Positions 1,699 to 56,259 of a DNA stretch of 62,670 nucleotides are shown one piece after another. Positions within the stretch are counted from its first letter, which is position 1, and every line of letters begins with the position of its first letter. The translations under genes were made by a program, and so were the position numbers. The stretch lies in NCBI GenBank assembly GCA_002396805.1, contig DGYW01000058.1:118747-181416 (forward strand), read 5' to 3'. This DNA is from Firmicutes bacterium UBA4996 (lineage in GTDB: Bacteria; Bacillota; Limnochordia; Darwinibacteriales; Darwinibacteriaceae). The notes beneath the pieces were generated by a model. The model was not told where the DNA came from. It saw nothing but the letters and a program-made list of their open reading frames with translations, and searched no databases.

Positions 1699-2106
1699 TT
1701 GAGTAGAAGGATAGCACGACAGGTGGCTTTCCAAACTCTCTTTCAGATTGATTTAGGGAAAAATGATGTGGAAGATGCTTTGGAATATAGATTAAGTGAA
1801 GTTGTATTAAATGAACAGGACACGGATTATGTGAGGCGCGCTGTGCGTGGAGTAAACCAGCAGGTTCGGGCCTTGGATAGGCAGATCAATGCTGTGGCAG
1901 ATGGCTGGGAAGTTCATCGCCTAGGCTCAATTGATCGCAGTATTTTACGGCTCGCCATCTACGAAATTGTGTTTATGGATGATATCCCGGTAGGTGTAGC
2001 TGTTAACGAAGCGGTAGAGCTAGCAAAAGAATTTGGGGATGATGATTCTCCCCGTTTCATTAATGGTTTGTTGGGCACCGTAGTTCGAGATGGTGGGTTC
2101 CAATGA
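1699..2106 (+). CDS. nusB: transcription antitermination factor NusB
   Basis: 135 aa. RRIARQVAFQTLFQID...VNEAVELAKEFGDDDSPRFINGLLG is the NusB signature. TTG start. Confidence 0.9.
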   Translation: MSRRIARQVAFQTLFQIDLGKNDVEDALEYRLSEVVLNEQDTDYVRRAVRGVNQQVRALDRQINAVADGWEVHRLGSIDRSILRLAIYEIVFMDDIPVGVAVNEAVELAKEFGDDDSPRFINGLLGTVVRDGGFQ

Positions 2107-3056
2107 GATTAGTCTTAGGTGTAGACACTAGTAGTTATACCACCTCGTTGTGCTTGCTTGGCAGTGATGGAAACATCTTGCTTGACCAACGGAAAATCTT
2201 AGAAGTGGCTTCTGGTTCTCGAGGATTGCGACAATCAGAAGCCCTCTTTCAACATGTGATGAATTTACCGCAACTTACTAGCAAATTGACTCCCTACCTG
2301 GAAGGCAACGAACTAGTGGCCATCGGAGTCTCGATTAAACCGCGTCCGCAGGATGATTCCTATCTACCGGTATTTTTGCCAGGTACTGGTCTAGCTCATT
2401 CCTTAGGTCATGTGCTGGGAGTTCCTTGTTATGATTTAACACATCAAGAAAGTCACATTTGGGCTGGTATTGCTAGTGCTGGCGGACCCAGTAGGTTTCC
2501 CTTCTTAGCGATCCATCTTTCTGGCGGGACTACCGAACTCACACTGGTGGATCGGGATCAAAGTAGTTGGGGTTTGATGATTGATTTGTGGGGGGGCACT
2601 TCTGATCTTCACGCAGGGCAATTTGTGGATCGCTTAGGGGTCAAACTGGGACTACCATTTCCCGCGGGGGCAGCCCTAGAACGTCTGGCTTTGGACGCAC
2701 ACACATCCTTGCCCGTTTCAACCTATCATCGGGAAGGCAAGGTGAGCTTTTCTGGACCTTTGACCGCTTTAGAACGATTAGTGGGACAAAAAGAGCCTGA
2801 GGTTTTGGCCTTGAGTTGTTTTTCGGCCATCAGTCGTACTTTGATCAAATGGATCAGCTGGGCAGAGAGCAGGACCAAGTGCCGGCAACTGCTAATAGTA
2901 GGAGGCGTTGCGGCCAACAGTCTAATCCGTCGGGAGCTAGAACGAACCTTACCCCATTGGGAATTGTTCTTTGCGGAACCGCGTTACAGTGTGGATAACG
3001 CCTTGGGGGCTGCTTATTTCGCAGCGTTAGCTTCTGGTTTGCTGGATAGGGATTGA
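2103..3056 (+). CDS. Kae1/TsaD-like ASKHA-fold protein (peptidase M22 / glycoprotease family)
   Basis: 317 aa. N-terminal LGVDTSSYTTS phosphate-1-like motif, HQESH, and LSGGTTEL. 4-nt overlap with nusB. Confidence 0.55.
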   Translation: MRLVLGVDTSSYTTSLCLLGSDGNILLDQRKILEVASGSRGLRQSEALFQHVMNLPQLTSKLTPYLEGNELVAIGVSIKPRPQDDSYLPVFLPGTGLAHSLGHVLGVPCYDLTHQESHIWAGIASAGGPSRFPFLAIHLSGGTTELTLVDRDQSSWGLMIDLWGGTSDLHAGQFVDRLGVKLGLPFPAGAALERLALDAHTSLPVSTYHREGKVSFSGPLTALERLVGQKEPEVLALSCFSAISRTLIKWISWAESRTKCRQLLIVGGVAANSLIRRELERTLPHWELFFAEPRYSVDNALGAAYFAALASGLLDRD

Positions 3057-4266: not shown

Positions 4267-4484
4267 GCCAGGAATTGAAGTTTGAGGAAGCTTTAGCTCG
4301 ACTCGAGGAAATTGTCCGCAGCTTAGAGCAAGGCGAGACCAGTTTGGAAGAGACTCTGTTGCTTTTTGAAGAAGGGGTAAAGCTCGCCCGGTTCTGTAAT
4401 CAAAAGCTAGATGAGGCTGAAGCGAAGATTGAGATTATGATAGATGAGGGGCAGATCGAAACACTCGAGGTGAGCAATCAGTGA
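4263..4484 (+). CDS. xseB: exodeoxyribonuclease VII small subunit
   Basis: MSQELKFEEALARLEEIVRSLEQGETSLEE... ATGA overlap with the xseA stop. The ORF-track start at 4236 lies inside xseA. Confidence 0.9.
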   Translation: MSQELKFEEALARLEEIVRSLEQGETSLEETLLLFEEGVKLARFCNQKLDEAEAKIEIMIDEGQIETLEVSNQ

Positions 4485-5374
4485 GGGATTTCAAGCAATA
4501 CTGGGCAACCCGTCTGGAGCAGATAGAAGAGATTTTGGAAGCGGCACTACCAACGGAGAACGTGACGCCTGGCAGGCTCCATGAGGCTATGCGCTATTCT
4601 ACTCTCGGTGGAGGCAAGCGTTTGAGGGCTTTATTAGTCATGGCCGCCTGTGAAGCTGTGGGGGGAGACATTTCCAGAACAGCAAATCTTGTGGCTGCGG
4701 TGGAAATGGTTCATGCCTATTCGTTGATCCACGATGATTTACCGTGTATGGATGATGATGACTTGCGGCGTGGTAAACCTACCAACCACCGGGTTTATGG
4801 AGAGGCTATGGCCGTTTTGGCAGGTGATGCCCTTTTAACGGAAGCTTTTGCCGAATTAGCCAAGATGTCTGAGCAATACGGGGTCGCCCCCGAAACTGCA
4901 GTACGCGTTGTAGCTGAATTGGCCCAAGGTGCCGGTTCTCAGGGCATGGTTGGTGGGCAAGTAGTGGATATTTTGGGGCAGGAGCAAGAGCCGGATCGAT
5001 CCACATTAGATTACATCCATCGGCATAAAACCGGTGCCTTAATAACGGCAGCCTTGAGAGGCGGTGCACTCATAGGGGGTTGCACTGAGGGAGAATTGGC
5101 TCAAATCACCATATATGGGGAAAATTTTGGTTTAGCTTTTCAGATCACCGATGATATTCTGGATGAAACTGGACAAACAGCTCAATTAGGGAAGGCTGTA
5201 GGGGCAGATCAGCGCCTTGGAAAGCAGACTTTTCCGCGCCTTTATGGCTTAGAAAAATCAAAGCAGATGGCAAGGGAGAGTGTGGCTAAGTGCCACGCCG
5301 CTCTAGAGGGCTTTTCTAACGAGGCCTGGTTTTTAAGGGAATTAGCCACCTTTATCATCCAGCGAGACCATTAG
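4481..5374 (+). CDS. ispA: polyprenyl (farnesyl/geranylgeranyl) diphosphate synthase
   Basis: 297 aa with both Asp-rich motifs: LIHDDLPCMDDDDLRRG and FQITDDILD. Confidence 0.9.
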   Translation: MRDFKQYWATRLEQIEEILEAALPTENVTPGRLHEAMRYSTLGGGKRLRALLVMAACEAVGGDISRTANLVAAVEMVHAYSLIHDDLPCMDDDDLRRGKPTNHRVYGEAMAVLAGDALLTEAFAELAKMSEQYGVAPETAVRVVAELAQGAGSQGMVGGQVVDILGQEQEPDRSTLDYIHRHKTGALITAALRGGALIGGCTEGELAQITIYGENFGLAFQITDDILDETGQTAQLGKAVGADQRLGKQTFPRLYGLEKSKQMARESVAKCHAALEGFSNEAWFLRELATFIIQRDH

Positions 5375-5379
5375 TTCAC

Positions 5380-5409
5380 TTGCACGGATTTTGCGGCTTA
5401 TGGTATAAT
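5380..5409 (+). promoter_or_regulatory. sigma-A-type promoter preceding the large ncRNA
   Basis: TTGCAC (5380-5385), N18, then TGgTATAAT (5401-5409). Confidence 0.5.
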
Positions 5410-5415
5410 AATATC

Positions 5416-6040
5416 ACCTAAAGGTGAATGGCGCAGTATTCTAGTCACTAGTCTTGTTTTTGAAGACGGGCCTAAAAATCCGTTAAGGGCACATCGATGA
5501 AGTCCTTGGTGGTGGCTTCCGACGCCCAGTCGGGGGTTGCTGCTGGGGGTTAAGGTGGGAGGGCGATCTGCAAGGGCATGCAGGCGTTGACCCTCCCTCC
5601 ACGGAGACCCATGACTGTGGGAACATGGAGAACGTGTTTTTACGGCTTGGGATTAAACCTGCACGCGATACGCACTTGAAGCTAAGACGTACATCAGTGT
5701 TGGGTGCAGTGTAGCCTGTCTTGAGTGGTGATCGGGGGATAGTGGTTGCAAGCTGAATTTCTCTTGGCCAGAGAAGTGTGCCCTCCGCTATGGCGGAAGA
5801 CCCTTGAAACCTTTGCTGCAAAAGAGACTAGAAAGCAAGAACTGGTGTTGGGGAAAACTCCTAGACTGTTTCCTTTCGGGGATAACGAAGTGGGGATTAC
5901 GGTGTGGTCTAAGTGGTAATCCAGCCTCGGCTATGGTGACAAGCGAAAAGATCGGAAAGGGGTAACCGCCAATTACGGTGACGAATTGGAGGATCTTTGG
6001 GAAAACCTGCTGGACCTAAGCCACAATCTTTACTCATTTC
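5416..6040 (+). ncRNA. ole: OLE (ornate, large, extremophilic) RNA; boundaries approximate
   Basis: ~700-nt gap without a credible ORF between ispA and a 4-TM protein gene. Dense GC-rich nested helices: CCGAC/GTCGG 5519-5533, and GGGAGGG/CCCTCCC 5557-5597 enclosing CTGCA/TGCAG 5568-5583. Size and the ispA-RNA-oapA-dxs context match the OLE class. Confidence 0.8.
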
Positions 6041-6077
6041 GTTGCCATTTGCCTCGGTATTTTGAGGAAGGTATAAA

Positions 6078-6644
6078 ATGCAAATTAATTGGAAGTCAAT
6101 ACTTACCTTAACTTTAACCACTTTTGCGTTGTCTGTAGTACTTAATCTAGGTAGTAACAGCGTATTGTCGTTTTTGCCCTTGACACTAAGCTTTTTGTTA
6201 CTACTTTTTATTATCTTTATTGGAGTTATTTTTGACATAATCGGAGTTGCGGCCACCGCGGGTGAAGAAGCTCCCTTTCATGCCATGGCATCCAATCGTC
6301 TAGCTGGGGCGAAACAAGCAATTTGGCTAGTACGGAATGCCGATGGCGTTTCTACTTTTTGTAACGATCTCATTGGGGACGTTGCTGGAACTTTGAGCGG
6401 CGCGATTGGCGTAGCCGTTATCTTTCAGCTTAAGTCGTTCTCCTTAGGGATAGGCGAAGCTTTGGCTACCACCGTGATGGTAGCTTTGGTGGCAGCTTTT
6501 ACTGTTGGGGGTAAATCTATCGGCAAGAGTTTTGCCATTTCTAAGTCAACGGCAATCCTCACAGTAGTTGGTCGGATTCTTTACTCCCTAGAACGGGTGG
6601 GTTTAAGATTTGATTCCACCTCCGCAAAAAACAAGAAGAGGTAG
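6078..6644 (+). CDS. oapA: OLE-associated membrane protein OapA-like
   Basis: 188 aa (~21 kDa) with about four TM segments, immediately downstream of the large structured RNA and upstream of dxs. Confidence 0.7.
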   Translation: MQINWKSILTLTLTTFALSVVLNLGSNSVLSFLPLTLSFLLLLFIIFIGVIFDIIGVAATAGEEAPFHAMASNRLAGAKQAIWLVRNADGVSTFCNDLIGDVAGTLSGAIGVAVIFQLKSFSLGIGEALATTVMVALVAAFTVGGKSIGKSFAISKSTAILTVVGRILYSLERVGLRFDSTSAKNKKR

Positions 6645-14231: not shown

Positions 14232-15626
14232 ATGTCAGAAATAATTCTGGTTGATATTGGAAGCACCTTTACCAAAGTTACGGCGGTAGACTTGACCGCC
14301 GCACACCTTATCGCCCAAGCAAATGCCCCAACCACGCCGGATGATGTGAGCATTGGCTTACAAAATGCCTTGGACAACTTGGGGATATCTCAACAAGTGA
14401 TGGCCCGAGCTCGTAAGCTTGCTTGTTCGAGTGCGGCGGGCGGGTTAAGGATGGTGGCAATCGGACTTGTCCAAGATTTGACCGCTGAGGCAGCTAAACA
14501 AGCGGCATTAGGTGCTGGGGCCAGGGTTCTGAAGACATATTCTTTTCAGCTCACAGAGTCTGATTTAGAAGAGATTATCCAGCTTCAACCAGATATTATT
14601 CTTTTGGCTGGAGGTACTGATGGTGGTAATACTGCTAACATCTTGCACAATGCTCAGGCCTTAGCGACTTTGCCCCAGGGAATACCTGTAGTTATCGCCG
14701 GAAATCGTTCGGTTGGACCTGAGGTAGCTCGTTGTTTTCCTGAACGTTTTAGTACTTATGTAGCTCCTAATGTGATGCCCCAAATTGGTAAATTAGAGGT
14801 TGAGCCTGCTCGGGAAGTAATTCGGAAAGTCTTCATGGAAAAGATAATTTATGCCAAGGGTTTAGACAAGGCTGGACGTTTAATTGAGGGGATCTTTATG
14901 CCTACTCCCGCGGCTGTTTTGCGGTCTGGCAGGCTTCTGAGTAGCGGTACCGCACTTACCAAGGGGTGGGGAGATCTCCTCATTGTGGATGTGGGTGGTG
15001 CTACCACCGATGTCCATTCTTTAGGGACCGGATCCCCTAGTAAAGCGGGTGTGGTCCAGAGGGGACTGCCAGAACCTTTCGCCAAACGAACTGTAGAGGG
15101 AGATTTGGGCATGAGGGTTAGTGTTTTATCTCTCCTCGATGCGATTAACCCAGCGGTCTTGGCTCGCGACTTGAATTGGAATCAAGAAAGAGTGGAGCAG
15201 AGGGCGAAGAAATTGTCTGCACAACCCGAATTGCTACCACAAAATCCGGAGGAAATTGCCTTTGATCAAACCTTAGGGTACCAGGCAGTAAAACTCGCAG
15301 TGGGCAGGCATGTAGGGAGACTCTCTGAATTATATACTCCGTCGGGGTTAGTTTGGATGCAAGATGGCAAGGATCTCTCATTAGTGAATAGGGTGATTGG
15401 GACCGGTGGAGTTATGGTAAATAGCGGAAACGCCCACTTTATGCTCAAAGGGGCAGAACATCAGCTAGAAGCCCCTTTGGAATTGCGTCCCGAAAAGCCT
15501 CATTATTTCTTGGATGGAAAGTATATTTTAGCACCTATGGGGCTGTTGGCTGAAGATTATCCAGAAGTGGCCCTGAAAATTCTCAAAGATTCATTAAACG
15601 ATCATGAGCTCGCAAGGAGGGACTAG
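14232..15626 (+). CDS. glmL: glutamate mutase accessory/reactivating protein GlmL (MutL)
   Basis: 464 aa. MSEIILVDIGSTFTKVTAVD ASKHA-type N-terminus. Located between the S and E subunits as in Clostridium. Confidence 0.85.
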   Translation: MSEIILVDIGSTFTKVTAVDLTAAHLIAQANAPTTPDDVSIGLQNALDNLGISQQVMARARKLACSSAAGGLRMVAIGLVQDLTAEAAKQAALGAGARVLKTYSFQLTESDLEEIIQLQPDIILLAGGTDGGNTANILHNAQALATLPQGIPVVIAGNRSVGPEVARCFPERFSTYVAPNVMPQIGKLEVEPAREVIRKVFMEKIIYAKGLDKAGRLIEGIFMPTPAAVLRSGRLLSSGTALTKGWGDLLIVDVGGATTDVHSLGTGSPSKAGVVQRGLPEPFAKRTVEGDLGMRVSVLSLLDAINPAVLARDLNWNQERVEQRAKKLSAQPELLPQNPEEIAFDQTLGYQAVKLAVGRHVGRLSELYTPSGLVWMQDGKDLSLVNRVIGTGGVMVNSGNAHFMLKGAEHQLEAPLELRPEKPHYFLDGKYILAPMGLLAEDYPEVALKILKDSLNDHELARRD

Positions 15627-15629
15627 TAG

Positions 15630-17087
15630 TTGGTGGCGCAAATTACACATGGTAAGTTGGATTGGTACGATCTTAAACAAGAACGGGAAGAAGTATTGGC
15701 TGGTTGGGTTACTGGTCAAGAGGTAGACTTGGAGGATGCGGTTCGCTTTCACCTGGCTCTACCCTCCCATCTCAATTTTGGTGTACGTATGGCCCAGGCC
15801 AAAGAAGAAGGAAAGACTCTCGCTCAGCCCCGGGCAGGGGTGGCTGATTTAACTAGCCATATTGGTTTACTAAAGTTCTTGCAGGATGAAGGTGGCGCAG
15901 ATCTTTTACCGACCACGATCGATTCTTACACCAGACAGAATCGTTATGAAGAAGCGGAAAGAGGTTTGGAAGAAAGTGTCCGTGAAGGTCGTTCACTCTT
16001 GAATGGCTTTCCCGCCGTAAATCACGGTGTGGCCAATTGTCGCCGCCTTGTAGAAAGCTTGTCTGTACCAGTGCAAGTGCGCCATGGCACCCCAGATGCT
16101 CGTTTACTGGCAGAAATAACCTTAGCAGCTGGTTTTACCGCTTATGAGGGAGGCGGTATTTCTTATAACATTCCCTACGCTAAGCGCGTGCCCTTAGAAA
16201 AAAGTATTCGCGATTGGCAATACGTGGATCGACTCACAGGCTTTTATGAGGAGCAAGGCGTTACCATTAACCGTGAACCTTTTGGACCTCTAACTGGAAC
16301 CCTAGTGGCACCTAGTGTCTCCCATAGTGTGGCCATCATCGAAGCCATTCTAGCGGCTAAGCAAGGGGTGAAGAGTCTGACTTTGGGTTACGGACAATGC
16401 GGAAATCTCATGCAGGACGTGGCCGCACTTCAGACATTAACCATACTTGCAGAAGAATACTTAGAAGCAGAAGGTTTAACAGATGTGGAAATCACCACCG
16501 TATTTCACCAGTGGATGGGAGGATTTCCCAATGATGAGGCTCGGGCCTTTGGAGTGATCTCCCTTGGGGGCGCTGCGGCAGCTCTGGGCAAGGCTACTAA
16601 AGTGATCGTAAAAACCCCACATGAAGCCTTAGGCGTTCCTACTAAGGAGGCAAACGCTCAAGGTATTCGCGCCACGAAGCAAGTCCTAAGTATGCTCCAG
16701 GATCAAATGTATCCAGAAAACGATAAACTGGCTTTCGAGCGGGAGATCATTATTCAAGAGACTCGTGAGATTCTCAACAAGACCCGTGAATTGGGTGAAG
16801 GTGATTGGGCAGTAGGTACTGTGCGCTCCTTCGCCGCCGGAGTTATTGACATACCATTTGCGCCTAGCTCGTTTAACGCGGGAAGAACCATGCCTGCTCG
16901 GGATAATGACGGTGCAATACGCTTTTTATCTTGGGGTAATTTGCCCTTCAGCAAGGACATTCAGGATTTCCATCGCTCGAAACTGGCAGAGCGGGGCAAA
17001 GCGGAGCAACGAACCCCCAGTTTCCAAATGGTTATTGACGATGTTTATGCCATTGGTCAAGGTAAGTTAATAGGAAGACCTCGTTAG
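15630..17087 (+). CDS. glmE: glutamate (methylaspartate) mutase epsilon subunit
   Basis: 485 aa. AQPRAGV...[18 protein letters not shown]...[12 protein letters not shown]...FHQWMGGFP...VIVKTPHEA, colinear with my recollection of clostridial MutE. Confidence 0.95.
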
Positions 17088-17104
17088 AGAACTCTCGCTA
17101 GGAG

Positions 17105-18469
17105 ATGATTGAATTGGATGAACTAAGAATTTTGTCCCCCACGGCGATTCTAGGCTATGGTTTTCCCTTAGCCTCTTTTCAGGCCGGATTAGAGCGTAGT
17201 CCACATGTTATTGCGGTTGATGCAGGTTCAACAGACCCAGGTCCTTATTATCTAGGTTCTGGCCAGTCGTTTACCCAACGTTCTGCAGTCAAGCGTGACT
17301 TACGTCACTTAATTGAAGCGGCTCTCACGCGCAATATTCCGCTAGTCATTGGGTCTGCTGGTGGTTCTGGTGCAAAGCCCCATGTGGAGTGGAATTTAGC
17401 CATTGTAGAAGAGGTGTTGGCAGAACTCGGCAAGACTGCCCGATTAGCGGTTATTTATAGTGACATAGATCGTCAATTGGTCGCGGAAAAGCTCAAGAAA
17501 GACCAGGTCCAGCCCCTGGGTCCTATTGCGCAATTGACAGAGGAAGAAATCTTTGCCAGTACGAACCTAGTAGCTCAAATGGGTCTAGAGCCCATCATGG
17601 AGGCACTCCAAGAAGGCGCAGAGATTATTCTGGCGGGTAGGGCCTATGATCCCACTGCTTTTGCGGCGTTGCCAGTCCTTAAGGGCTATGATCTTGCCCT
17701 AGCTTTGCATCTTGGGAAAATACTGGAGTGTGCAGCTATTGCCGCTAATCCAGGCAGCGGTAGTGATTGCTTAATGGGTTACCTTTATAAGGATTCCTTT
17801 GTGTTAGAAGCTCTCAATCCACAGCGGGAGTGCACGAGGATCTCGATTGCCGCCCATACTCTTTATGAAAAGAGTAATCCTTACTTTTTGCCTGGTCCAG
17901 GAGGACGTTTAGATCTAACTAAGACTGTGTTCGAACAGTTGCCAGGAGGCAAGGTTAGGGTTTCGGGAACTACCTTTACACCTACAGATGGTTATTTTGT
18001 CAAACTGGAAGGGGCACGCCTCATCGGATATCGGACTATCAGTATTGCTGGTGTGCGCGATCCTATCATGATTGGACAGATAGACGAGGTAATCGCAGGT
18101 GTTAAGGAACGGGTCGAGGATAATTTTCAAGAACTCCAAGACTATCAGTTACATGTGCACTGTTACGGTAAGAACGGCGTGATGGGGGCTTTAGAACCTC
18201 ATCCTGAACCGGGACATGAGTTGGGGTTAGTAATTGAGGCAGTGGCAAGCACTCAGGAAGTAGCGGATACTATTTGCAGCTTTGCCCGCTCCACACTCTT
18301 ACACTATGGTTATCCAGGCAGGAAATCTACGGCAGGTAACTTAGCTTTTCCCTACTCACCTTCTGACGTTTCAGCGGGAGCAGTTTACAAGTTTAATGTG
18401 CACCACTTGATGCAAATAGAAGATCCGAAGAGCCTATTTCCAATTAAGATGGGGAGGAGTGGTCTATGA
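17105..18469 (+). CDS. uncharacterised protein, DUF1446 (AtuA N-terminal domain)-like
   Basis: 454 aa. Assignment rests mainly on the overlapping downstream DUF4387-like partner (the AtuA domain order split into two genes). No direct catalytic motif recognised. Confidence 0.5.
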   Translation: MIELDELRILSPTAILGYGFPLASFQAGLERSPHVIAVDAGSTDPGPYYLGSGQSFTQRSAVKRDLRHLIEAALTRNIPLVIGSAGGSGAKPHVEWNLAIVEEVLAELGKTARLAVIYSDIDRQLVAEKLKKDQVQPLGPIAQLTEEEIFASTNLVAQMGLEPIMEALQEGAEIILAGRAYDPTAFAALPVLKGYDLALALHLGKILECAAIAANPGSGSDCLMGYLYKDSFVLEALNPQRECTRISIAAHTLYEKSNPYFLPGPGGRLDLTKTVFEQLPGGKVRVSGTTFTPTDGYFVKLEGARLIGYRTISIAGVRDPIMIGQIDEVIAGVKERVEDNFQELQDYQLHVHCYGKNGVMGALEPHPEPGHELGLVIEAVASTQEVADTICSFARSTLLHYGYPGRKSTAGNLAFPYSPSDVSAGAVYKFNVHHLMQIEDPKSLFPIKMGRSGL

Positions 18470-18768
18470 GATACGTCAAGGATGTTGCTTTGGTGATTCG
18501 AAGTAAAAACGCGGGCCCTTATGAACTAACATTTGACCTCATGTTTCCTGATGAAGAAAGCTACGATGAAGTGCGACAAAGTATTACCAAAGCGAAGATT
18601 GCCCAGTTATACCAGATTGAGGAGAGTGAGGTGCTCTCTCTAGTGCACTTTGCTCCGGCCCATGCCATCAAGATTACTATTGTGCGCCCTCGGGCTTCAG
18701 GTGACCTTGGGGAAACGGATGTTTATGGTGCACAGCAACACGCACCCCTTTTTGACCTAACTTATTAA
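18466..18768 (+). CDS. uncharacterised small protein, DUF4387 (AtuA C-terminal ferredoxin-like domain)-like
   Basis: 100 aa. IRSKNAGPYELTFDLMF and DVYGAQQH motifs as I recall them for this family. 4-nt overlap with the upstream gene. Confidence 0.55.
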   Translation: MRYVKDVALVIRSKNAGPYELTFDLMFPDEESYDEVRQSITKAKIAQLYQIEESEVLSLVHFAPAHAIKITIVRPRASGDLGETDVYGAQQHAPLFDLTY

Positions 18769-18782
18769 AGGAGTGGTGGAAA

Positions 18783-20030
18783 TTGAAGATTAAGGATGTC
18801 GTTTTATCCAAAGGGTTAACGGGGTTTTATTTCGACGATCAAAAGGCTATTCGACAAGGGAATTTTCGCGAAAATGGCCTTGCTTATGATGGTGATCCGG
18901 TGACACCAGGATTCACCAGCATTCGCCAAGCTGGCGAAAGCGTTTCTATTCAATTAGTCTTAGAGAGCGGGCAAGTAGCCTATGGTGACTGTGCCGCGGT
19001 GCAATACTCTGGTGCTGGTGGCCGAGATCCCTTGTTTTTAGCTGATGATTATATTCCCCTGATCGAGAAATACGTCGTACCCGTAGTAAAGGGAAAAGCA
19101 TTAACCTCTTTTAAGCAGTTAGCCAAAGAAGTAGATCAGATTAAAGATAGTAATGGTAAACTAATGCATACTGCCATTCGTTATGGAGTGACTCAGGCTC
19201 TGCTTGATGCGGTAGCCCGAAGCAAAGGGGTAACTATGGCAGAAGTAATCGTTGATGAATATGGTTTGGAGCTAACTCCCGAACCAGTCCTAATCTTTTG
19301 CCAAACCGGAGATGATCGCAAGATCAATGCGGACCGCATGATCATTAAGCAAGCAGATATGCTGCCCCACGGTCTGTTTAACAACGTTAATAAACTTGGT
19401 AAGAATGGAGAGCATCTTAAGGAATACTTAGCTTGGTTGAAGGAGCGGGTCCAGGAACTAAAGACATGTCCTGACTATCTACCTGATTTTCAAGTTGACG
19501 TTTACGGTACCATCGGTGAGGCTTTCAATAACGATATTGCTAAGGTAGGCGAATATGCAAGAGAGCTAGCGGAGATAGTTGCACCACATAAGTTGCTCAT
19601 TGAAGGACCCATCGAGTGCTCCACTCGGGATGAGCAAATTAAGGCCATGGCGGATTTGAGGACCTATGTGGATGAGCGTAACATTCCGGTCAAATTCGTA
19701 GTAGATGAATGGTGTAATACTCTTGATGATATCAAGGCCTTTACCGATGCTAAGGCTGGACATATGATTCAGATTAAGGCTCCGGATCTGGGGGGCATCA
19801 ATAATTCTGTAGAAGCGGTAATCTACTGTCACAAAAACGGTATGCTACCGTATTTGGGTGGAACCTGTAATGAAACAGAGCGTTCTGCTCAGATCACTGT
19901 TCAAGTCGCAGTGGCAACCCAGCCGAGACAGATTCTTTCTAAGCCAGGTATGGGTGTGGACGAGGGATTGTCTATATGCACTAACGAAATGAATCGTCTG
20001 GTGGCTCTTTTGAAGAGCAGAGCAAGGTAG
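18783..20030 (+). CDS. mal: 3-methylaspartate ammonia-lyase
   Basis: 415 aa. GLTGFYFDDQ...DCAAVQYSGAGGRDPLF...HMIQIKAPDLGG...GGTCNETERSA, colinear with my recollection of clostridial beta-methylaspartase. Confidence 0.95.
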   Translation: MKIKDVVLSKGLTGFYFDDQKAIRQGNFRENGLAYDGDPVTPGFTSIRQAGESVSIQLVLESGQVAYGDCAAVQYSGAGGRDPLFLADDYIPLIEKYVVPVVKGKALTSFKQLAKEVDQIKDSNGKLMHTAIRYGVTQALLDAVARSKGVTMAEVIVDEYGLELTPEPVLIFCQTGDDRKINADRMIIKQADMLPHGLFNNVNKLGKNGEHLKEYLAWLKERVQELKTCPDYLPDFQVDVYGTIGEAFNNDIAKVGEYARELAEIVAPHKLLIEGPIECSTRDEQIKAMADLRTYVDERNIPVKFVVDEWCNTLDDIKAFTDAKAGHMIQIKAPDLGGINNSVEAVIYCHKNGMLPYLGGTCNETERSAQITVQVAVATQPRQILSKPGMGVDEGLSICTNEMNRLVALLKSRAR

Positions 20031-20039
20031 GGGATAGAA

Positions 20040-20882
20040 GTGAGAGTAATTAAGTATGACGACATAGTGGCCCGGACTAAAGCCCTGTGTTTGGACGCTA
20101 ATCGGCATCTTCCTGCCGATGTCTTTGGAGCCCTGAAGCGCGCTCAAGAGCAAGAGGTCTCTCCCTTAGGCAAAAATGTTTTAGATACCATTTTGGAAAA
20201 CGCGGAGATTGCTCGCACCAAATCCATGGCGCTTTGTCAGGACACTGGTATGGTTGTTGTTTTCGCCGAGGTCGGTCAAGACGCACGGATTGAAGGTGGA
20301 TTACTCACTGATGCAATTGACGAGGGTGTGCGTCAGGCTTATGATGAAGGGTATCTACGCAAAAGCGTCGTTGGTGACCCCTTAGAGCGAGTAAATACAG
20401 GAGATAACACTCCCGCGGTTGTGCACGTCTCTTTGGTAGCAGGCGATCAACTGCGCCTGACTGTGGCACCAAAAGGTTTTGGTAGTGAAAACATGTCTGC
20501 CCTCCGTATGCTTAAACCTGCGGAAGGCGTACAAGGTGTGAAGGACTTCATTGTGGAGACAGTTACCAAGGCTGGCGGTAATCCCTGTCCACCCATTATT
20601 ATTGGAGTTGGGATTGGAGGTACCTTTGAAAAGGCGGCCTTGATGGCCAAGCGATCTGTCTTGCGGGAAATTGGATCCAAGCATCCAAAACCACACCTGG
20701 CTCAGCTTGAAGAAGAGCTCTTAGAACTGGTCAACAAAACTGGTGTAGGACCGCAGGGCTTTGGTGGTACGCAAACAGCCTTAGCCGTCTTTGTGGATAC
20801 TTATCCAACCCATATAGCGGGATTGCCAGTGGCCGTAAACATTAACTGCCATGTGGCAAGACATGTGGAGGCGATTCTCTAA
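20040..20882 (+). CDS. Fe-S type hydro-lyase alpha subunit (class I fumarase / tartrate dehydratase alpha type; candidate mesaconase alpha)
   Basis: 280 aa. ALCQDTGMVVVF, VAPKGFGSENMS, and IIIGVGIGGTFE motifs of the FumA N-terminal domain. Confidence 0.85.
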   Translation: MRVIKYDDIVARTKALCLDANRHLPADVFGALKRAQEQEVSPLGKNVLDTILENAEIARTKSMALCQDTGMVVVFAEVGQDARIEGGLLTDAIDEGVRQAYDEGYLRKSVVGDPLERVNTGDNTPAVVHVSLVAGDQLRLTVAPKGFGSENMSALRMLKPAEGVQGVKDFIVETVTKAGGNPCPPIIIGVGIGGTFEKAALMAKRSVLREIGSKHPKPHLAQLEEELLELVNKTGVGPQGFGGTQTALAVFVDTYPTHIAGLPVAVNINCHVARHVEAIL

Positions 20883-31241: not shown

Positions 31242-32480
31242 TTGAGCATGCGCGGAGTTTTTTTTGTACTGTTTTTTCTTCTGCTTTGTATTTCGGCAGG
31301 AGAGGCTTATGACGTTCGAGGCGGGATCCAAGGTTCGCTAGGTAGCGAAGGAGTGGAGCATGAACTAAGCTTGGACGCTAAGCAGCAGTGGTCGGGCTTA
31401 AAAATAGACGCGGGGTGGAAGGGGCAGTGGCTTAGTTCGTCTGCTGAAACAAAGCACTATTTGAACTGGCAGATGTGTTTTGATGCCAAACACCTACAGC
31501 TGATTTTTAGTGGGAACAAACCCCATTATACTTCAGGGGACCTTTTTCGTTTGGTCCACAAAGACAACTTTGGCCCGGATAGTAGCTCCTTCTTAATAGT
31601 AAGCGAAGGGTTGACGTTAGGATTGCTGAGGAGGATTCCCTTAAGGAGTTTAGATCAGGTTGATGTTTGGTTCTATGAAAGCGCATTGGATTTAGGACCC
31701 TTTAGTTTAAAGGGGATGCAGCTGCAATATTCTGGTTTCAAGGAGGCTGGCGCAGCCCAAGTTTTGCATGGGGAAGGCAGTTGGCGCGACTGGAAAGTTT
31801 TAGTTGGTCGCGGCTGGCAGACCAATTCAAGTGGGGTGGAGAGCAGAGCACGGTTAGCAGAAATCAGAAACAACGGAGATTTTTGGGAAGTGCTCTTAAC
31901 CTACCAGTCAATCGATCCTCAGTTCTCGAGCCTTTTAGCCAAGACCAACAAACACACTCCTGACCGGCGGGGTTGGCGGGTGGAGGCAGTATACAATTCT
32001 GCTACTTGGCGACTTAAGTTCAATCGTCGCCAACATAGTAACATCGAAGGGAGTAAAAAATACAATCAGCTGTCTTGGCAGTTGAGTTCTCATGACAAGA
32101 AGTCTTCGATACAGTTGCGTCTAGAGCCTACGCCTGCTTTTATTCTGCGTGCTGTTGGGGAGGGAGTGGTAGCACAGTTCGATGCTTGGAATGGAGCCAT
32201 GCGGGTCGATTGGCACCGGGACCAACTACGCTATGGGTTTCGTTGGGACGTGGAGCGCGGCATTATCCGTTTTGAGCTCGGTCACCAGTTACCCTTCGAG
32301 TGGAGGATCATTGCCAAATTCGATGTGGCTCAACGGCGTCAGCATTACTCTCTGCTAGCGAGTTATGCCACCAAGACAGCTGAACTCAAATTGGAGATTG
32401 GCAGTTATGATCGGGGCAATTTGCTCGCCGGCTTTAACAATCCACCGAGTTACCGCATATCATGGGGATGGAAGTTCTAG
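31242..32480 (+). CDS. secreted protein of unknown function with beta-barrel/OMP-like features
   Basis: 412 aa. Signal peptide (VFFVLFFLLLCISAGEA), many alternating amphipathic strands, and C-terminus YRISWGWKF. Confidence 0.5.
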   Translation: MSMRGVFFVLFFLLLCISAGEAYDVRGGIQGSLGSEGVEHELSLDAKQQWSGLKIDAGWKGQWLSSSAETKHYLNWQMCFDAKHLQLIFSGNKPHYTSGDLFRLVHKDNFGPDSSSFLIVSEGLTLGLLRRIPLRSLDQVDVWFYESALDLGPFSLKGMQLQYSGFKEAGAAQVLHGEGSWRDWKVLVGRGWQTNSSGVESRARLAEIRNNGDFWEVLLTYQSIDPQFSSLLAKTNKHTPDRRGWRVEAVYNSATWRLKFNRRQHSNIEGSKKYNQLSWQLSSHDKKSSIQLRLEPTPAFILRAVGEGVVAQFDAWNGAMRVDWHRDQLRYGFRWDVERGIIRFELGHQLPFEWRIIAKFDVAQRRQHYSLLASYATKTAELKLEIGSYDRGNLLAGFNNPPSYRISWGWKF

Positions 32481-32519: not shown

Positions 32520-32819
32520 ATGAGGTATTCGGAGTTGTCGGGCAAAGAGATCGTGTGCATTGATGAAGGCATCAGGCTCGGAGTAGTGGATCATACCGAT
32601 CTAATCATCAACTTGCGGACAGGCGAAGTGGATTCTATTGTGATTCCCTATGGTAATCGCTGGTTTCGACCTAGATTAATTGTGATTCCTTGGAAGGGTG
32701 TTAAGAAGATCGGCAGAGACTTAATAATCGTTGATTTGACTACTGCTCAGGATTATTCTGAGGTAATGCGGAAGCTTGAAGATAAACCCCGATGGAATAA
32801 GCCCCCTTTTATTGGGTAA
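32520..32819 (+). CDS. ylmC: YlmC/YmxH family sporulation protein (PRC barrel)
   Basis: 99 aa. MRYSELSGKEIVCIDEGIRLGVV...DLIIN..TGEVDSIVIP is characteristic. Confidence 0.85.
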   Translation: MRYSELSGKEIVCIDEGIRLGVVDHTDLIINLRTGEVDSIVIPYGNRWFRPRLIVIPWKGVKKIGRDLIIVDLTTAQDYSEVMRKLEDKPRWNKPPFIG

Positions 32820-32852
32820 GCTAGACTTAAGAAACTAAAAGGGGGAATTCTT

Positions 32853-33365
32853 TTGTCAACCGTTATAGGTGTTTTTCGTGATCTCACCACAGCAGAAAAT
32901 GCAGTAAAAGCCCTCAGAAATAAAGGGTTTGGAGATAACGAAATTTCCATTATAGCAAAGGACGACAAAAAAGGACGTACTAGATCGCAAGACATGGAGA
33001 CTGGAGGAGACTTCGGTACAGATTCTTTGGGTGATGGGACTGCTTGGGGTGGTGCACTAGGTGGAATGGCTGGATTGCTAGCCGGTGTAGGTGCCCTGGC
33101 CATTCCTGGGATTGGGCCTATCGTGGCGGCAGGACCATTAGCTGGAGTACTCTCTGGAGCAGTAACTGGTGGCGTAGCGGGTGGTTTGATTGATTTGGGT
33201 ATTCCCGAAGAGCGGGGTCGGCAATATGAAGCAGATCTAAAACAAGGGGGAGTACTCGCAGTTATAGAAACCAGTGAAGATAAGGTGAACGATGCTAGTT
33301 CTATTCTTCGAGACAATGGGGCGAAGGACGTAGAAGCCCACGGAGGAGAAACAAGAAACAACTAG
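32853..33365 (+). CDS. general stress protein (YflT/GSP17M-like) with glycine-zipper membrane segment
   Basis: 170 aa. VIGVFRDLTTAENAVKALRNKGF N-terminal domain, a Gly-rich hydrophobic core, and a repeated C-terminal domain. Confidence 0.55.
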   Translation: MSTVIGVFRDLTTAENAVKALRNKGFGDNEISIIAKDDKKGRTRSQDMETGGDFGTDSLGDGTAWGGALGGMAGLLAGVGALAIPGIGPIVAAGPLAGVLSGAVTGGVAGGLIDLGIPEERGRQYEADLKQGGVLAVIETSEDKVNDASSILRDNGAKDVEAHGGETRNN

Positions 33366-47845: not shown

Positions 47846-48082
47846 ATATTGAAAAGACGATGAATAGGAGAGTACTGACTAAGATTGGGTACAGAGAGTC
47901 TGGTGAGCTGAAAACAGACCCCATGAATAGTTGAGGAAAATCACCTAGGAGTTGCTAGTCCGAATTTTAGTAAGCTAAGCCGGTGGTTACGTTAAAACCA
48001 GAAAGTGGAGGCATTGCTACAATGCCTTAACTAGGGTGGTACCGCGGGTTTCTCGTCCCTTTTTGGGGGGCGAGTTTTTTTA
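47846..48082 (+). promoter_or_regulatory. T-box riboswitch leader, Ile specifier (AUC)
   Basis: Stem I AGAGAG/GGTGAG elements. AUC followed by A at 47940-47943. T-box AACTAGGGTGGTACCGCG at 48029-48046. Terminator CTCGTCCC/GGGGCGAG plus T7 at 48052-48081. Confidence 0.9.
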
Positions 48083-48092
48083 TGGAAAATAA

Positions 48093-50891
48093 TTGGAGGA
48101 GTTGTTAGCCTTGGAAAAGGGTTCAGTGTATCAAAAAACACTACAGTTGCCGGTCACAGAATTTCCCATGCGGGGCAATTTGCCCACGCGGGAACCTCAA
48201 ATGTTAGCTCAGTGGGATCAAGAGGATTATTACGGCCAGCTGCAAAAGTTGGGCCAGGAGCAAAATAGACCCACATTTATTCTCCATGATGGTCCTCCTT
48301 ATGCCAATGGTGATATTCACATTGGGACTGCACTAAACAAGATTCTTAAAGATATTGTGATCCGTTCTCGGGCTTTAGCTGGCTATCGGGTGCCTTATGT
48401 ACCTGGGTGGGATACCCACGGCTTGCCCATCGAGCTCCATGTTGTCAGGGAGTTAGGTCAACGGCGAGAAGGTATGCCTGTTGACGTGTTGAGAGAGCAT
48501 TGTGCTAAGTACGCCTTAGAACAACTGGATATTCAGCGCCAGCAGTTTCGCCGTCTAGGAGTGTGGGGTGATTGGGAGTCGCCCTACGTGACCTTAGATC
48601 CCGAGTATGAAGCCATTCAGATTGAAGTCTTTGGCGAAATGGCTGAAAAGGGTTATGTGTATAAGGCACTCAAACCTGTCTACTGGTGTGCTGATTGTCA
48701 AACAGCTTTAGCCGAGGCGGAGATTGAATACGCAGATCATCGCTCGCCTAGTATCTTCGTGCGTTTCCCTGTAAAAGATGGTAAGGGAGTACTAAGCGAA
48801 CAGGACACTTACTTCGTAATCTGGACCACCACACCTTGGACCATTCCCGCCAACTTGGGAATTGCCTTACATCCTTATTACGATTACGTTTTGGTTCAGA
48901 CTGAGCGAGGGAGACTGATTCTAGCTAAAGAGTTAGCTGACAATGTGCTCCAAGAGCTAGCCCTTACTAATCAGGGAATCCTTGGCGAATTTAAGGGTAG
49001 TCAGTTGGAAGGTATTATCTGTTCCCATCCCCTTATGAACAGGGATTCGCTGGTGATTCTAGGTGATCACGTAACTCTAGAAGCAGGTACCGGGTGCGTT
49101 CATACTGCCCCAGGACACGGCCATGAAGACTATATCGTCGGTTTGCAATATGGCTTATCGATCTTATCACCTGTAGATGCCCAAGGTCGTTTTACTGATG
49201 AAGCAGGTCCCTACGCCGGACTCACTCTTGATGAGGGTAACAAGGCAGTGGTTCAGGATTTAGAAACCAATGGTGCTCTACTGAAGATGGACTTCGTGGA
49301 TCACTCCTATCCCCATTGTTGGCGTTGTAAGGAGCCGGTGATTTATCGTGCTACGGATCAATGGTTTGTATCTATTGACGGGTTTAGGACAGGTATGCTC
49401 ACAGCTATTAACGATGTCCAGTGGATTCCCAGTTGGGGTATTGATCGTATTGGTGGTATGATCGCAGATCGTGGTGATTGGTGCATTTCTCGTCAAAGAG
49501 TATGGGGTGTGCCTATCCCGGTTTTATATTGTGATTGCGGAGAGAATATTATCGCTCCAGAGACTATTAAGCACATTGCGGAAGTATTCCGGGTGGAGGG
49601 CTCTAATGCTTGGTACAGTAAGTCTGCTCAGGAACTGTTACCACAGGGTTACAGTTGCCCAGCTTGCGGTGGAAAATCCTTCCGCAAAGAGACCGATACC
49701 ATGGATGTCTGGTTTGACTCGGGCGTGTCCCATCAGGCAGTCTTGACTAGTCGCCCAGAACTCTCTTGGCCAGCGGATCTTTATCTGGAGGGTAGTGACC
49801 AACATCGGGGTTGGTTCCAATCTTCACTATCAACATCGGTGGCCACCACTGGGACAGCACCCTATAAGGCTGTGCTTACTCACGGTATGGTTGTGGATGG
49901 AGAAGGTAAGAAGATGTCCAAGTCCATTGGCAATGTAGTAGCACCCGAAGAAGTTTGGAAGAAATATGGTGCGGATGTGCTCCGTCTATGGGTGTCCTCA
50001 GCAGAATTTCGCGGCGATATCAGAATTTCTGACGATATTCTGAAGCAACTTTCCGAGGCCTATCGACGGATTCGAAATACTGCTCGCTTCATTTTGGGCA
50101 ATCTCCACGACTTTGAGCCAGATCGTCATGCTGTTCCCTACGAGGAAATGGAAGAACTTGATCGCTGGGCCCTAATGAAACTCGCTAAATTAAGCGATCG
50201 CATGCGTAAGGCCTATGAGAAGTATGATTTCCACCTTGCTTACTATGCGGTTCATCAGTTTTGCTCAGTAGATTTAGGTGGCTTTTACTTGGATGTGCTA
50301 AAGGATCGCTTGTATTGTGATAAACCTAATGGTCGTGAACGGCGTTCGGCACAAACCGCGTTCACAGTGATCATTAAGGAGCTTGCTCAGTTGATAGCTC
50401 CAATTTTGGTTTTTACTTCTGAGGAAATCTGGCAACATCTGCCTGAACAGACTAGGTGTGAAAAGAGCGTGCACTTTAGTACATGGCAAGAAATGCCTCA
50501 AGAGTATCGAGATCCACAATTAGAACAACGCTGGGATGAGTTTTTAGAACTGCGCAGAGTAGTCTCTAAATCCCTTGAGTTGGCCAGAGCCGACAAGGTC
50601 ATTGGAGCGGCTAACGAAGCCCAGGTGGTCATCTATGCCAATGAGCAAATGCGAGCGATTTTAGATGCATTCTCCGCTGATCTACGCTTGTTGTTCATCG
50701 TATCTAGTGTGGAAGTGCTTCCCTTTGACGAGGGGCAAGGGGCCCTCTATGGCGAAGAAGGTATCGCTGTTGATGTCCAACGCGCCACCGGAGAAAAGTG
50801 TGAGAGATGTTGGAAATACTTTTCAGAAATGAGTTCTGATCCGGAGCATACCCAGATTTGCCAGCGTTGTCTTGACGCCATTCAAAGCTAG
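48093..50891 (+). CDS. ileS: isoleucine--tRNA ligase (start codon uncertain within the first ~12 codons)
   Basis: 932 aa. PPYANGDIHIGT (HIGH), KMSKS, CP1 editing domain, and a C-terminal CxxC...CxxC zinc finger. Conserved N-terminus starts around YQKTLQLPVTEFPMRGNL. Confidence 0.95.
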   Translation: MEELLALEKGSVYQKTLQLPVTEFPMRGNLPTREPQMLAQWDQEDYYGQLQKLGQEQNRPTFILHDGPPYANGDIHIGTALNKILKDIVIRSRALAGYRVPYVPGWDTHGLPIELHVVRELGQRREGMPVDVLREHCAKYALEQLDIQRQQFRRLGVWGDWESPYVTLDPEYEAIQIEVFGEMAEKGYVYKALKPVYWCADCQTALAEAEIEYADHRSPSIFVRFPVKDGKGVLSEQDTYFVIWTTTPWTIPANLGIALHPYYDYVLVQTERGRLILAKELADNVLQELALTNQGILGEFKGSQLEGIICSHPLMNRDSLVILGDHVTLEAGTGCVHTAPGHGHEDYIVGLQYGLSILSPVDAQGRFTDEAGPYAGLTLDEGNKAVVQDLETNGALLKMDFVDHSYPHCWRCKEPVIYRATDQWFVSIDGFRTGMLTAINDVQWIPSWGIDRIGGMIADRGDWCISRQRVWGVPIPVLYCDCGENIIAPETIKHIAEVFRVEGSNAWYSKSAQELLPQGYSCPACGGKSFRKETDTMDVWFDSGVSHQAVLTSRPELSWPADLYLEGSDQHRGWFQSSLSTSVATTGTAPYKAVLTHGMVVDGEGKKMSKSIGNVVAPEEVWKKYGADVLRLWVSSAEFRGDIRISDDILKQLSEAYRRIRNTARFILGNLHDFEPDRHAVPYEEMEELDRWALMKLAKLSDRMRKAYEKYDFHLAYYAVHQFCSVDLGGFYLDVLKDRLYCDKPNGRERRSAQTAFTVIIKELAQLIAPILVFTSEEIWQHLPEQTRCEKSVHFSTWQEMPQEYRDPQLEQRWDEFLELRRVVSKSLELARADKVIGAANEAQVVIYANEQMRAILDAFSADLRLLFIVSSVEVLPFDEGQGALYGEEGIAVDVQRATGEKCERCWKYFSEMSSDPEHTQICQRCLDAIQS

Positions 50892-56184: not shown

Positions 56185-56259
56185 GGCGGCATAGCCAAGT
56201 GGTAAGGCAGAGCTCTGCAAAAGCTCCATTCCCCAGTTCAAATCTGGGTGCCGCCTCCA
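56185..56259 (+). tRNA. tRNA-Cys (GCA), CCA encoded
   Basis: Acceptor GGCGGCA/TGCCGCC, anticodon stem GAGCT/AGCTC with loop CTGCAAA, T-arm CCCAG TTCAAAT CTGGG, 3' TCCA. Confidence 0.93.

Follow-up and report, generated by a model that had tools for sequence, protein, structure and literature searches.

The genome of Firmicutes bacterium UBA4996 (contig DGYW01000058.1) contains, within a stretch of 62,670 nucleotides (nt) that we refer to as the window, a gap of 703 nt between ispA (farnesyl diphosphate synthase, 4481-5374) and an open reading frame (ORF) of 188 amino acids (aa) that starts at position 6078, and the question raised by this locus is what the gap contains. A preliminary description, made from the letters of the sequence, had proposed that the roughly 700 nt at 5375-6077 hold no credible ORF and encode an OLE RNA, followed by the gene of its membrane partner protein OapA. 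OLE is a large bacterial non-coding RNA bound to the membrane, with OapA as its anchor protein, and the two have been known since 2006. An Rfam scan that covered the entire window gave three matches above threshold, with RF01071 (OLE) by far the best; this match occupies 5412-6064 on the forward strand (653 nt; all features below are on this strand unless stated otherwise), scores 468.7 bits (E 2e-134) against a gathering score of 50, and spans model positions 1-616 of 616, and the proposed identity is thereby upheld over the full length of the RNA. The gap was also found to be free of any reading frame kept open through all 35 homologous OLE sequences, in agreement with the earlier view of it as non-coding. 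We consider it almost certain that ole is present at 5412-6064 as a functional gene of full length, with its partner gene oapA at 6078-6644, and nothing in the sequence speaks against this identification.

The case for a functional RNA was built on a comparison of the window with the OLE RNAs of 34 other genomes, which were found via relatives of the downstream protein, were each confirmed with Rfam (441-542 bits), and were aligned together with the window as 35 sequences using MAFFT. The results showed that standard pairs are present in 87.1% of pair cells over the 158 base pairs of the model, and that 116 of these 158 pairs have changed on both sides among the 35 RNAs. The covariation score was 0.47, compared with 0.21 in column shuffles, none of which reached the observed value in 500 trials, and it fell to 0.11-0.15 when partners were slid by 1-3 columns. 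The window RNA itself keeps canonical pairing in 144 of the model's 158 pairs, and the 653-nt fold has a free energy of -241 kcal/mol (z = -5.7 vs dinucleotide shuffles). The three GC-rich helices pointed out in the preliminary description, CCGAC 5519-5523 with GTCGG 5529-5533, GGGAGGG 5557-5563 with CCCTCCC 5591-5597, and CTGCA 5568-5572 with TGCAG 5579-5583, are all present and all three turned out to be helices of the Rfam OLE model. When the 27 OLE RNAs from outside the clade of the window were used as the reference, the window was found to retain all 156 of their invariant nucleotides and 223 of the 227 positions conserved at the 90% level, and two of the four deviations at that level, C5719U and G5827A, form a compensatory pair in the P9 arm. 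The species representatives searched do not include the window organism; the nearest OLE among them shares 86% identity with the window RNA, and the OLE of Halalkalibacterium halodurans shares 62%. The H. halodurans RNA scores 538.6 bits, and close relatives of the window score 457-466 bits.

The window RNA resembles the H. halodurans OLE in its full-length model match, its invariant nucleotides and its helices, P7 and P8 included, and was read against the published anatomy of that RNA, with the numbering anchored on the P13 GUGA loop at nucleotides 501-504 (PMC7936274). The two strands of P3/P3.1, 5447-5461 and 5831-5846, pair over 15 base pairs (bp) with one bulge in the minimum-free-energy fold; H. 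halodurans OLE has the P3/P3.1 helix too. This helix is not part of the Rfam model and was evaluated separately: across the 35 OLE RNAs, cognate strands pair with a mean of -14.3 kcal/mol vs -6.5 kcal/mol for non-cognate strands, and the putative helix, which has been proposed to span the membrane (PMC12265935), covaries across the set. The P4 hairpin (5465-5484), an Rfam helix, carries the A-rich loop CCUAAAAA at 5471-5478, whose nucleotides are invariant in 35 of 35 sequences and which is a dimerisation contact in cryo-electron microscopy (cryo-EM) structures (PMC12265935). The J4a/5 segment CAUCGAUGAAG at 5492-5502 comprises the palindromic AUCGAU of the P4a region, which we infer to be the palindrome where one site of OapA has been mapped; the segment also supplies a strand of the OapC kink-turn (for both roles of this region see PMC9723947 and PMC12265935). 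Its positions 5493-5502 are identical to nucleotides 83-92 of H. halodurans OLE, and C5495-G5554 corresponds to the C85-G144 pair, whose disruption inactivates the OLE particle (PMC9723947); the predicted OapC kink-turn nucleotides flanking P5 are thus retained in the window RNA. The P5/P5.1 hairpin (5503-5549; 20 bp, 97% of cells paired) ends in the loop GCCCA at 5524-5528, and P6/P6.1 (5554-5600, an Rfam helix) in the loop AGGGCA at 5573-5578, of which GGGC is complementary to GCCC in the P5.1 loop; these two loops are described as forming an intermolecular kissing contact (PMC12265935). P7 (5608-5651), another Rfam helix, and P8 (5659-5709) are followed by the P9 arm (5718-5828), which consists of five model helices and includes the palindromic GGCC loop at 5766-5769, the dimer bridge of PMC12286853. 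All three putative dimerisation loops (P4, P5.1/P6.1 and P9) are retained in the window, again as in H. halodurans.

The predicted OapB site is likewise intact. The P13 hairpin (5927-5946) has the GNRA loop GUGA at 5936-5939 and a bulged A5933 two pairs below it, as called for by the requirements of OapB for a GNRA loop and a single-nucleotide bulge (PMC7936274). The bulge corresponds to U498 of H. halodurans, which has the same loop and a bulge in the same place but differs in the bulged base, and the P12.2 receptor pair G489-C575 corresponds to G5924-C6010. A P14.1-type hairpin at 5968-5990 carries a second GNRA loop, GUGA 5978-5981, and the P14.1 GNRA loop of H. halodurans is a weak secondary OapB site (PMC7936274). 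Every known structural element of OLE can thus be recognised in the window sequence. The reduced OLE variants 1 and 2 of the TANB77 and RF39 clades, in which P7, P8 and P9 are shortened or missing and the OapB site is often lost (PMC11332333), belong to the same family and share the same conserved core. Given that P7, P8, P9 and the P13 site are all present in the window, and that P8 and P9 are even slightly enlarged, its RNA is of the full-length type and not of reduced variant 1 or 2.

The enlargement sets the window apart from H. halodurans together with seven relatives, namely the uncultured Bacillota loci L003, L004, L007, L008, L009, L010 and L046 of our comparison, whose OLE RNAs are 76-86% identical to that of the window. 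These eight RNAs score about 70 bits below H. halodurans in Rfam, a difference due to two insertions that the model lacks. The first, of 23 nt, lies in P8 and extends its terminal loop to 25 nt (5672-5696). The loop has the same length in six of the seven closest relatives (L003, L004, L007, L008, L010 and L046) and is shorter in L009, and it contains a conserved GUAC-containing segment. Since no convincing covarying helix was found in it, the term 'enlarged loop' is preferred here to 'extra stem'. The second insertion, of 13 nt, adds a hairpin of about 14 nt that branches from P9 on its 3′ side (5784-5797, UCCGC-UAUG-GCGGA). In the MAFFT alignment of this 35-nt region the stems fell out of register, and each sequence was instead folded singly, which placed a hairpin at the equivalent position in the window and in all seven relatives, the stem differing in sequence from one RNA to the next (UCCGC/GCGGA, CCCAUUU/AAAUGGG, UUCGC/GCGAA, GUCCAG/CUGGAC and others). 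The z-scores of the single hairpins are modest, from -0.7 to -3.8, and the argument for the element is that complementary but different stems occupy one position in all eight RNAs. We regard both additions as ordinary lineage-specific elaboration of a variable arm. It is conceivable, if rather doubtful, that they define an undescribed, expanded OLE of a clade of uncultured Bacillota from anaerobic digesters, in which they would dock a lineage-specific partner or change how the P9 dimer bridge is spaced; if this were true, an expansion on the P9 arch might help to find what P9 does, the published variants all being reductions. Insertions of another kind were observed in the OLE of a Symbiobacteriaceae metagenome-assembled genome (L043, 1496-2172), in which 27 nt are inserted after P5 and the 5′ side of P9 carries another insertion, both different from the additions of the window's clade.

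The partner gene, oapA (6078-6644), begins with an ATG 14 nt past the end of the Rfam match and encodes a protein of 188 aa (pI 9.8) with four predicted transmembrane helices and a basic C-terminus. The preliminary description had spoken of a four-helix membrane protein of about 21 kDa; the four hydrophobic segments are there, and the mass is corrected to 19.7 kDa. The protein gave no Pfam or NCBIfam match at default thresholds, and as OapA has no curated family in either database, homology was shown via H. halodurans and the genomic context. Hundreds of homologues were found, nearly all of them named 'hypothetical', with a best match of 74% identity among the species representatives searched. 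A homologue in H. halodurans, P0105, is 47% identical over 176 residues (E 9e-51), and its gene has the 538.6-bit OLE directly upstream; no source names P0105 as OapA, and we take it to be so because its gene adjoins the H. halodurans OLE. The relationship to OapA that had been proposed for the 188-aa protein is therefore borne out by its homology to the OLE-adjacent protein of that species. An alignment of 13 sequences contains 27 invariant columns, and the window product aligns throughout. It has the DxxxD motif as D97-L-I-G-D101, with no variation at D97, G100 or D101 among the aligned sequences; this motif is distinctive of OapA and absent from CNNM domains (PMC11332333). The window protein shares with H. 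halodurans OapA the four transmembrane helices, the DxxxD motif, the basic C-terminus, a gene adjoining ole and a CNNM-like predicted fold that lacks CBS and CorC domains, but it is twelve residues shorter and has a shorter loop between helices three and four.

The fold was examined with an AlphaFold2 model of OapA (pLDDT 76), which has long helices at residues 5-32, 35-61, 88-121 and 126-155, and the five best PDB fold matches of this model are CNNM transporters, MtCorB (7M1T, 7M1U) and CorC (7CFF). At the level of sequence, OapA scored 17.1 bits against PF01595 (CNNM), under the cut-off of 28.4, and 10 of the 13 homologues matched this family weakly, while a profile of OapA sequences searched against PDB sequences matched no chain at E up to 1. 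The MpfA/CorB/CorC proteins are thus the best structural matches and have weak sequence similarity in the CNNM transmembrane domain, but they differ from OapA, which has four helices instead of three, carries DxxxD and is without their cytoplasmic CBS and CorC domains. OapA has been described as a sub-threshold, distant relative of CNNM domains, and a CNNM-like fold has been published for the H. halodurans protein (PMC11332333). We accordingly treat OapA as a distant CNNM relative and not as a family member in the strict sense.

The genomic setting agrees with this pairing of RNA and protein. Pfam and NCBIfam place the gene order of the window as xseA-xseB-ispA / ole-oapA / dxs-tlyA-nadK-argR-recN, exactly as it had been read beforehand, nadK included, with spoIVB and spo0A as further flanking genes of the cluster. 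The H. halodurans locus reads xseA-xseB-ispA / OLE / oapA / dxs-tlyA-argR-recN and has the same flanking genes apart from nadK, which in the window stands between tlyA and argR, and from a TsaD-like gene in the place of folD. The claim that such an order is the described genomic signature of OLE is backed by this locus and, in general terms, by PMC12265935 and PMC10898510. As in other members of the class, the window RNA lies in a cluster of housekeeping genes of a Bacillota host with oapA alongside, and its nearest relatives are uncultured Bacillota/Limnochordia genomes. Among the 40 species-representative loci scanned, OLE adjoins the oapA relative in 37, which are all of the 37 loci with enough flanking sequence; the remaining three loci end less than 260 nt upstream of the oapA relative. 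OLE lies upstream of the oapA relative in 36 of the 37 and downstream in one, L046 (2992-4263 of JAAYMS010000075.1, Bacillota metagenome-assembled genome AS20ysBPTH_44). There the order is ispA - oapA - OLE - dxs, OLE has a TGnTATAAT promoter of its own, and oapA is present in a single copy. The TsaD-like gene of the window (2103-3056) lies between nusB and xseA and encodes a TsaD/Kae1-like protein of 317 aa, which scores 104 bits vs an NCBIfam TsaD cut-off of 296 and may be a divergent paralogue.

The promoter TTGCAC-N18-TGgTATAAT, claimed at the outset, was located in the sequence with its -35 element TTGCAC at 5380-5385, a spacer of 18 nt, and an extended -10 element TGgTATAAT at 5401-5409 (TATAAT hexamer at 5404-5409), for an overall extent of 5380-5409. 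A consensus promoter scan of the region did not report it, because the -35 element agrees at only three of six positions. TGnTATAAT abuts the start of OLE in 15 of the 18 species examined, which represent very different Bacillota lineages and include H. halodurans, where the extended -10 promoter holds the same position, and in L015 and L016 it lies about 40 nt farther upstream of OLE. Such cross-species conservation of the -10 element is much stronger evidence for a promoter than a match in a single sequence, and there is good comparative evidence that the predicted extended -10 promoter of ole is real and conserved in position across distant species. Transcription would then start near 5416. 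A terminator scan detected no terminator-like site between OLE and oapA, and co-transcription of ole and oapA is therefore most likely. The ribosome-binding site of oapA, GAGGAAGG at 6064-6071, is located 6 nt before the ATG, and the Rfam match reaches into it with its 3′ tail. Within the 3′ end of ispA (5308-5337), about 45 nt before the ole promoter, a hairpin with a T-run that resembles a terminator was seen; terminator-like sites in the region numbered 3 vs 1.9 in shuffles and so show no excess.

This arrangement bears on the possibility that the structured region is mainly a cis-acting, long 5′ leader for oapA-dxs and the genes downstream and not a trans-acting particle, as there is no terminator between OLE and oapA, the promoter lies upstream of the RNA and not of oapA, the ribosome-binding site abuts the RNA tail, and a single polycistronic transcript has been reported for the H. 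halodurans cluster (PMC12265935). However, about 25% of 600 nt are near-invariant and some 19 helices covary, which is far beyond any known leader, and the predicted sites for trans-acting proteins and for self-dimerisation are specifically kept. Published work, moreover, shows OLE to be abundant, to reside at the membrane and to be needed in experiments on trans-complementation (PMC12265935, PMC9723947). In L046 oapA precedes OLE, so that the RNA is no oapA leader there, and it is on this gene order that a purely cis-acting leader was rejected. We consider this explanation very improbable.

It is less probable still that ole has lost its function here and survives as a decaying remnant. A score of 468.7 bits, lower than the 538.6 bits of H. 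halodurans, the two insertions relative to the model and 14 non-canonical pairs among the 158 could be taken as signs of decay, but the lower score is common to the whole clade, the insertions are conserved in it and one of them shows compensatory changes, and oapA is intact, with a product that aligns with its homologues throughout. The retention of all 156 invariant nucleotides led us to reject decay.

The coding content of the interval was also assessed on both strands. The ORFs of at least 40 aa that overlap the gap are two antisense ORFs, one of 112 aa with a TTG start (5483-5821, reverse strand) and one of 115 aa with a GTG start (5909-6256, reverse strand), and three sense ORFs of 57, 53 and 41 aa; the statement in the preliminary description that only two antisense ORFs exist thus holds for ORFs of at least 60 aa and fails below that length. 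Its characterisation of their translations as P/R/S-rich junk fits the 112-aa product (P/S/R-rich, 14/12/9%) but not the 115-aa product, which is K/L/I-rich. That the interval encodes an antisense-strand protein of 112 or 115 aa is the most far-fetched explanation and was rejected: two antisense ORFs of more than 100 aa do exist, but they start with TTG or GTG and have low-complexity translations, no frame is consistently open in the 35 homologues, and the substitutions are compensatory in RNA helices.

Having identified the region as ole and oapA, we set out how the window RNA and protein might work by analogy with studied systems, the functional model being drawn from PMC12265935, PMC12286853, PMC7936274, PMC9723947, PMC10898510 and PMC11332333. 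As in H. halodurans and two Clostridium species, the RNA would fold into two domains linked by the P3/P3.1 helix, and two RNAs would dimerise via the A-rich P4 loops, the P5.1-P6.1 kissing loops and the P9 GGCC loop. OapA, as a membrane protein of four helices akin to the CNNM/CorB Mg2+ transporters in their transmembrane domain, would bind near P2 and P4a and hold OLE at the membrane, or possibly across it; OapA is reported to bind OLE RNA at about 2:1 and to localise the RNA to the membrane in literature cited in PMC12265935. OapB at P13/P12.2 and OapC at the kink-turn beside P5, both encoded elsewhere in the genome, would complete the particle, which may aid adaptation to stresses, among them cold, alcohols, poor carbon sources and an excess of Mg2+. 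Most probably, though this step is unproven for any OLE RNA, the RNA would do so by modulating OapA-dependent handling of divalent cations, and would thus replace the cytoplasmic regulatory domains borne by MpfA/CorB proteins.

Several points weigh against reading the locus as a complete OLE particle gene set with this mode of action. The matches of the OapA fold are weak, with a best E of 0.028 and a TM-score of about 0.5, and the confidence of the underlying model is only moderate (pLDDT 76). The scanned ORFs in the 62.7 kb of the window include no oapB or oapC: Pfam scans of 60 of the 74 window ORFs of at least 55 aa detected no KOW-type or L7Ae-type protein, the window ORFs having been called greedily and ten of 199-309 aa near the 3′ end having stayed outside the scans. 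OapB and OapC are small proteins, and 199-309 aa is longer than expected for either. In H. halodurans, too, oapB and oapC lie outside the ole cluster. The putative mechanism, moreover, is borrowed from other species, in which it is itself still tentative, and the transmembrane model is a proposal from partial cryo-EM structures (PMC12265935).

Taken by itself, the window OLE is canonical in every tested respect and adds one example to a known class, for which a 2024 survey by Fernando and Breaker counted 2,822 species with OLE (PMC11332333). Among the bacterial non-coding RNAs of unresolved biochemical function, the class is one of the largest and best conserved; the preliminary description had called the function unresolved, in accordance with the current literature (PMC12265935, PMC11332333). 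OLE is possibly also the first membrane-spanning RNA of natural origin. In an uncultured lineage, the present identification gives a correct annotation to a membrane protein listed as 'hypothetical' and to a gap of 700 nt that had none, provides one more divergent OLE sequence for covariation analysis, and records the small clade-specific additions in P8 and P9.

Other features were observed in the window and in related loci. A T-box leader (47851-48063, 127.3 bits) lies directly upstream of 48093-50891, which encodes a class I aminoacyl-tRNA synthetase of 932 aa with an IleRS-type zinc finger; this gene is most likely ileS. A single tRNA-Cys (GCA) gene is present at 56185-56259. Two ORFs, at 31242-32480 (forward strand, 412 aa) and 32753-33361 (reverse strand, 202 aa), had no Pfam match at E up to 0.001. 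A methylaspartate-pathway cluster at 14232-20882, between spoIVB and spo0A, contains a MutL-type glutamate mutase reactivase, the glutamate mutase E chain, an AtuA-like protein, a DUF4387 protein, methylaspartate ammonia-lyase and a fumarase-type hydratase. Among the related loci, L018, from a Clostridiales genome, has a riboswitch for c-di-AMP at 863-990 (91 bits), which precedes OLE by about 1.3 kb.

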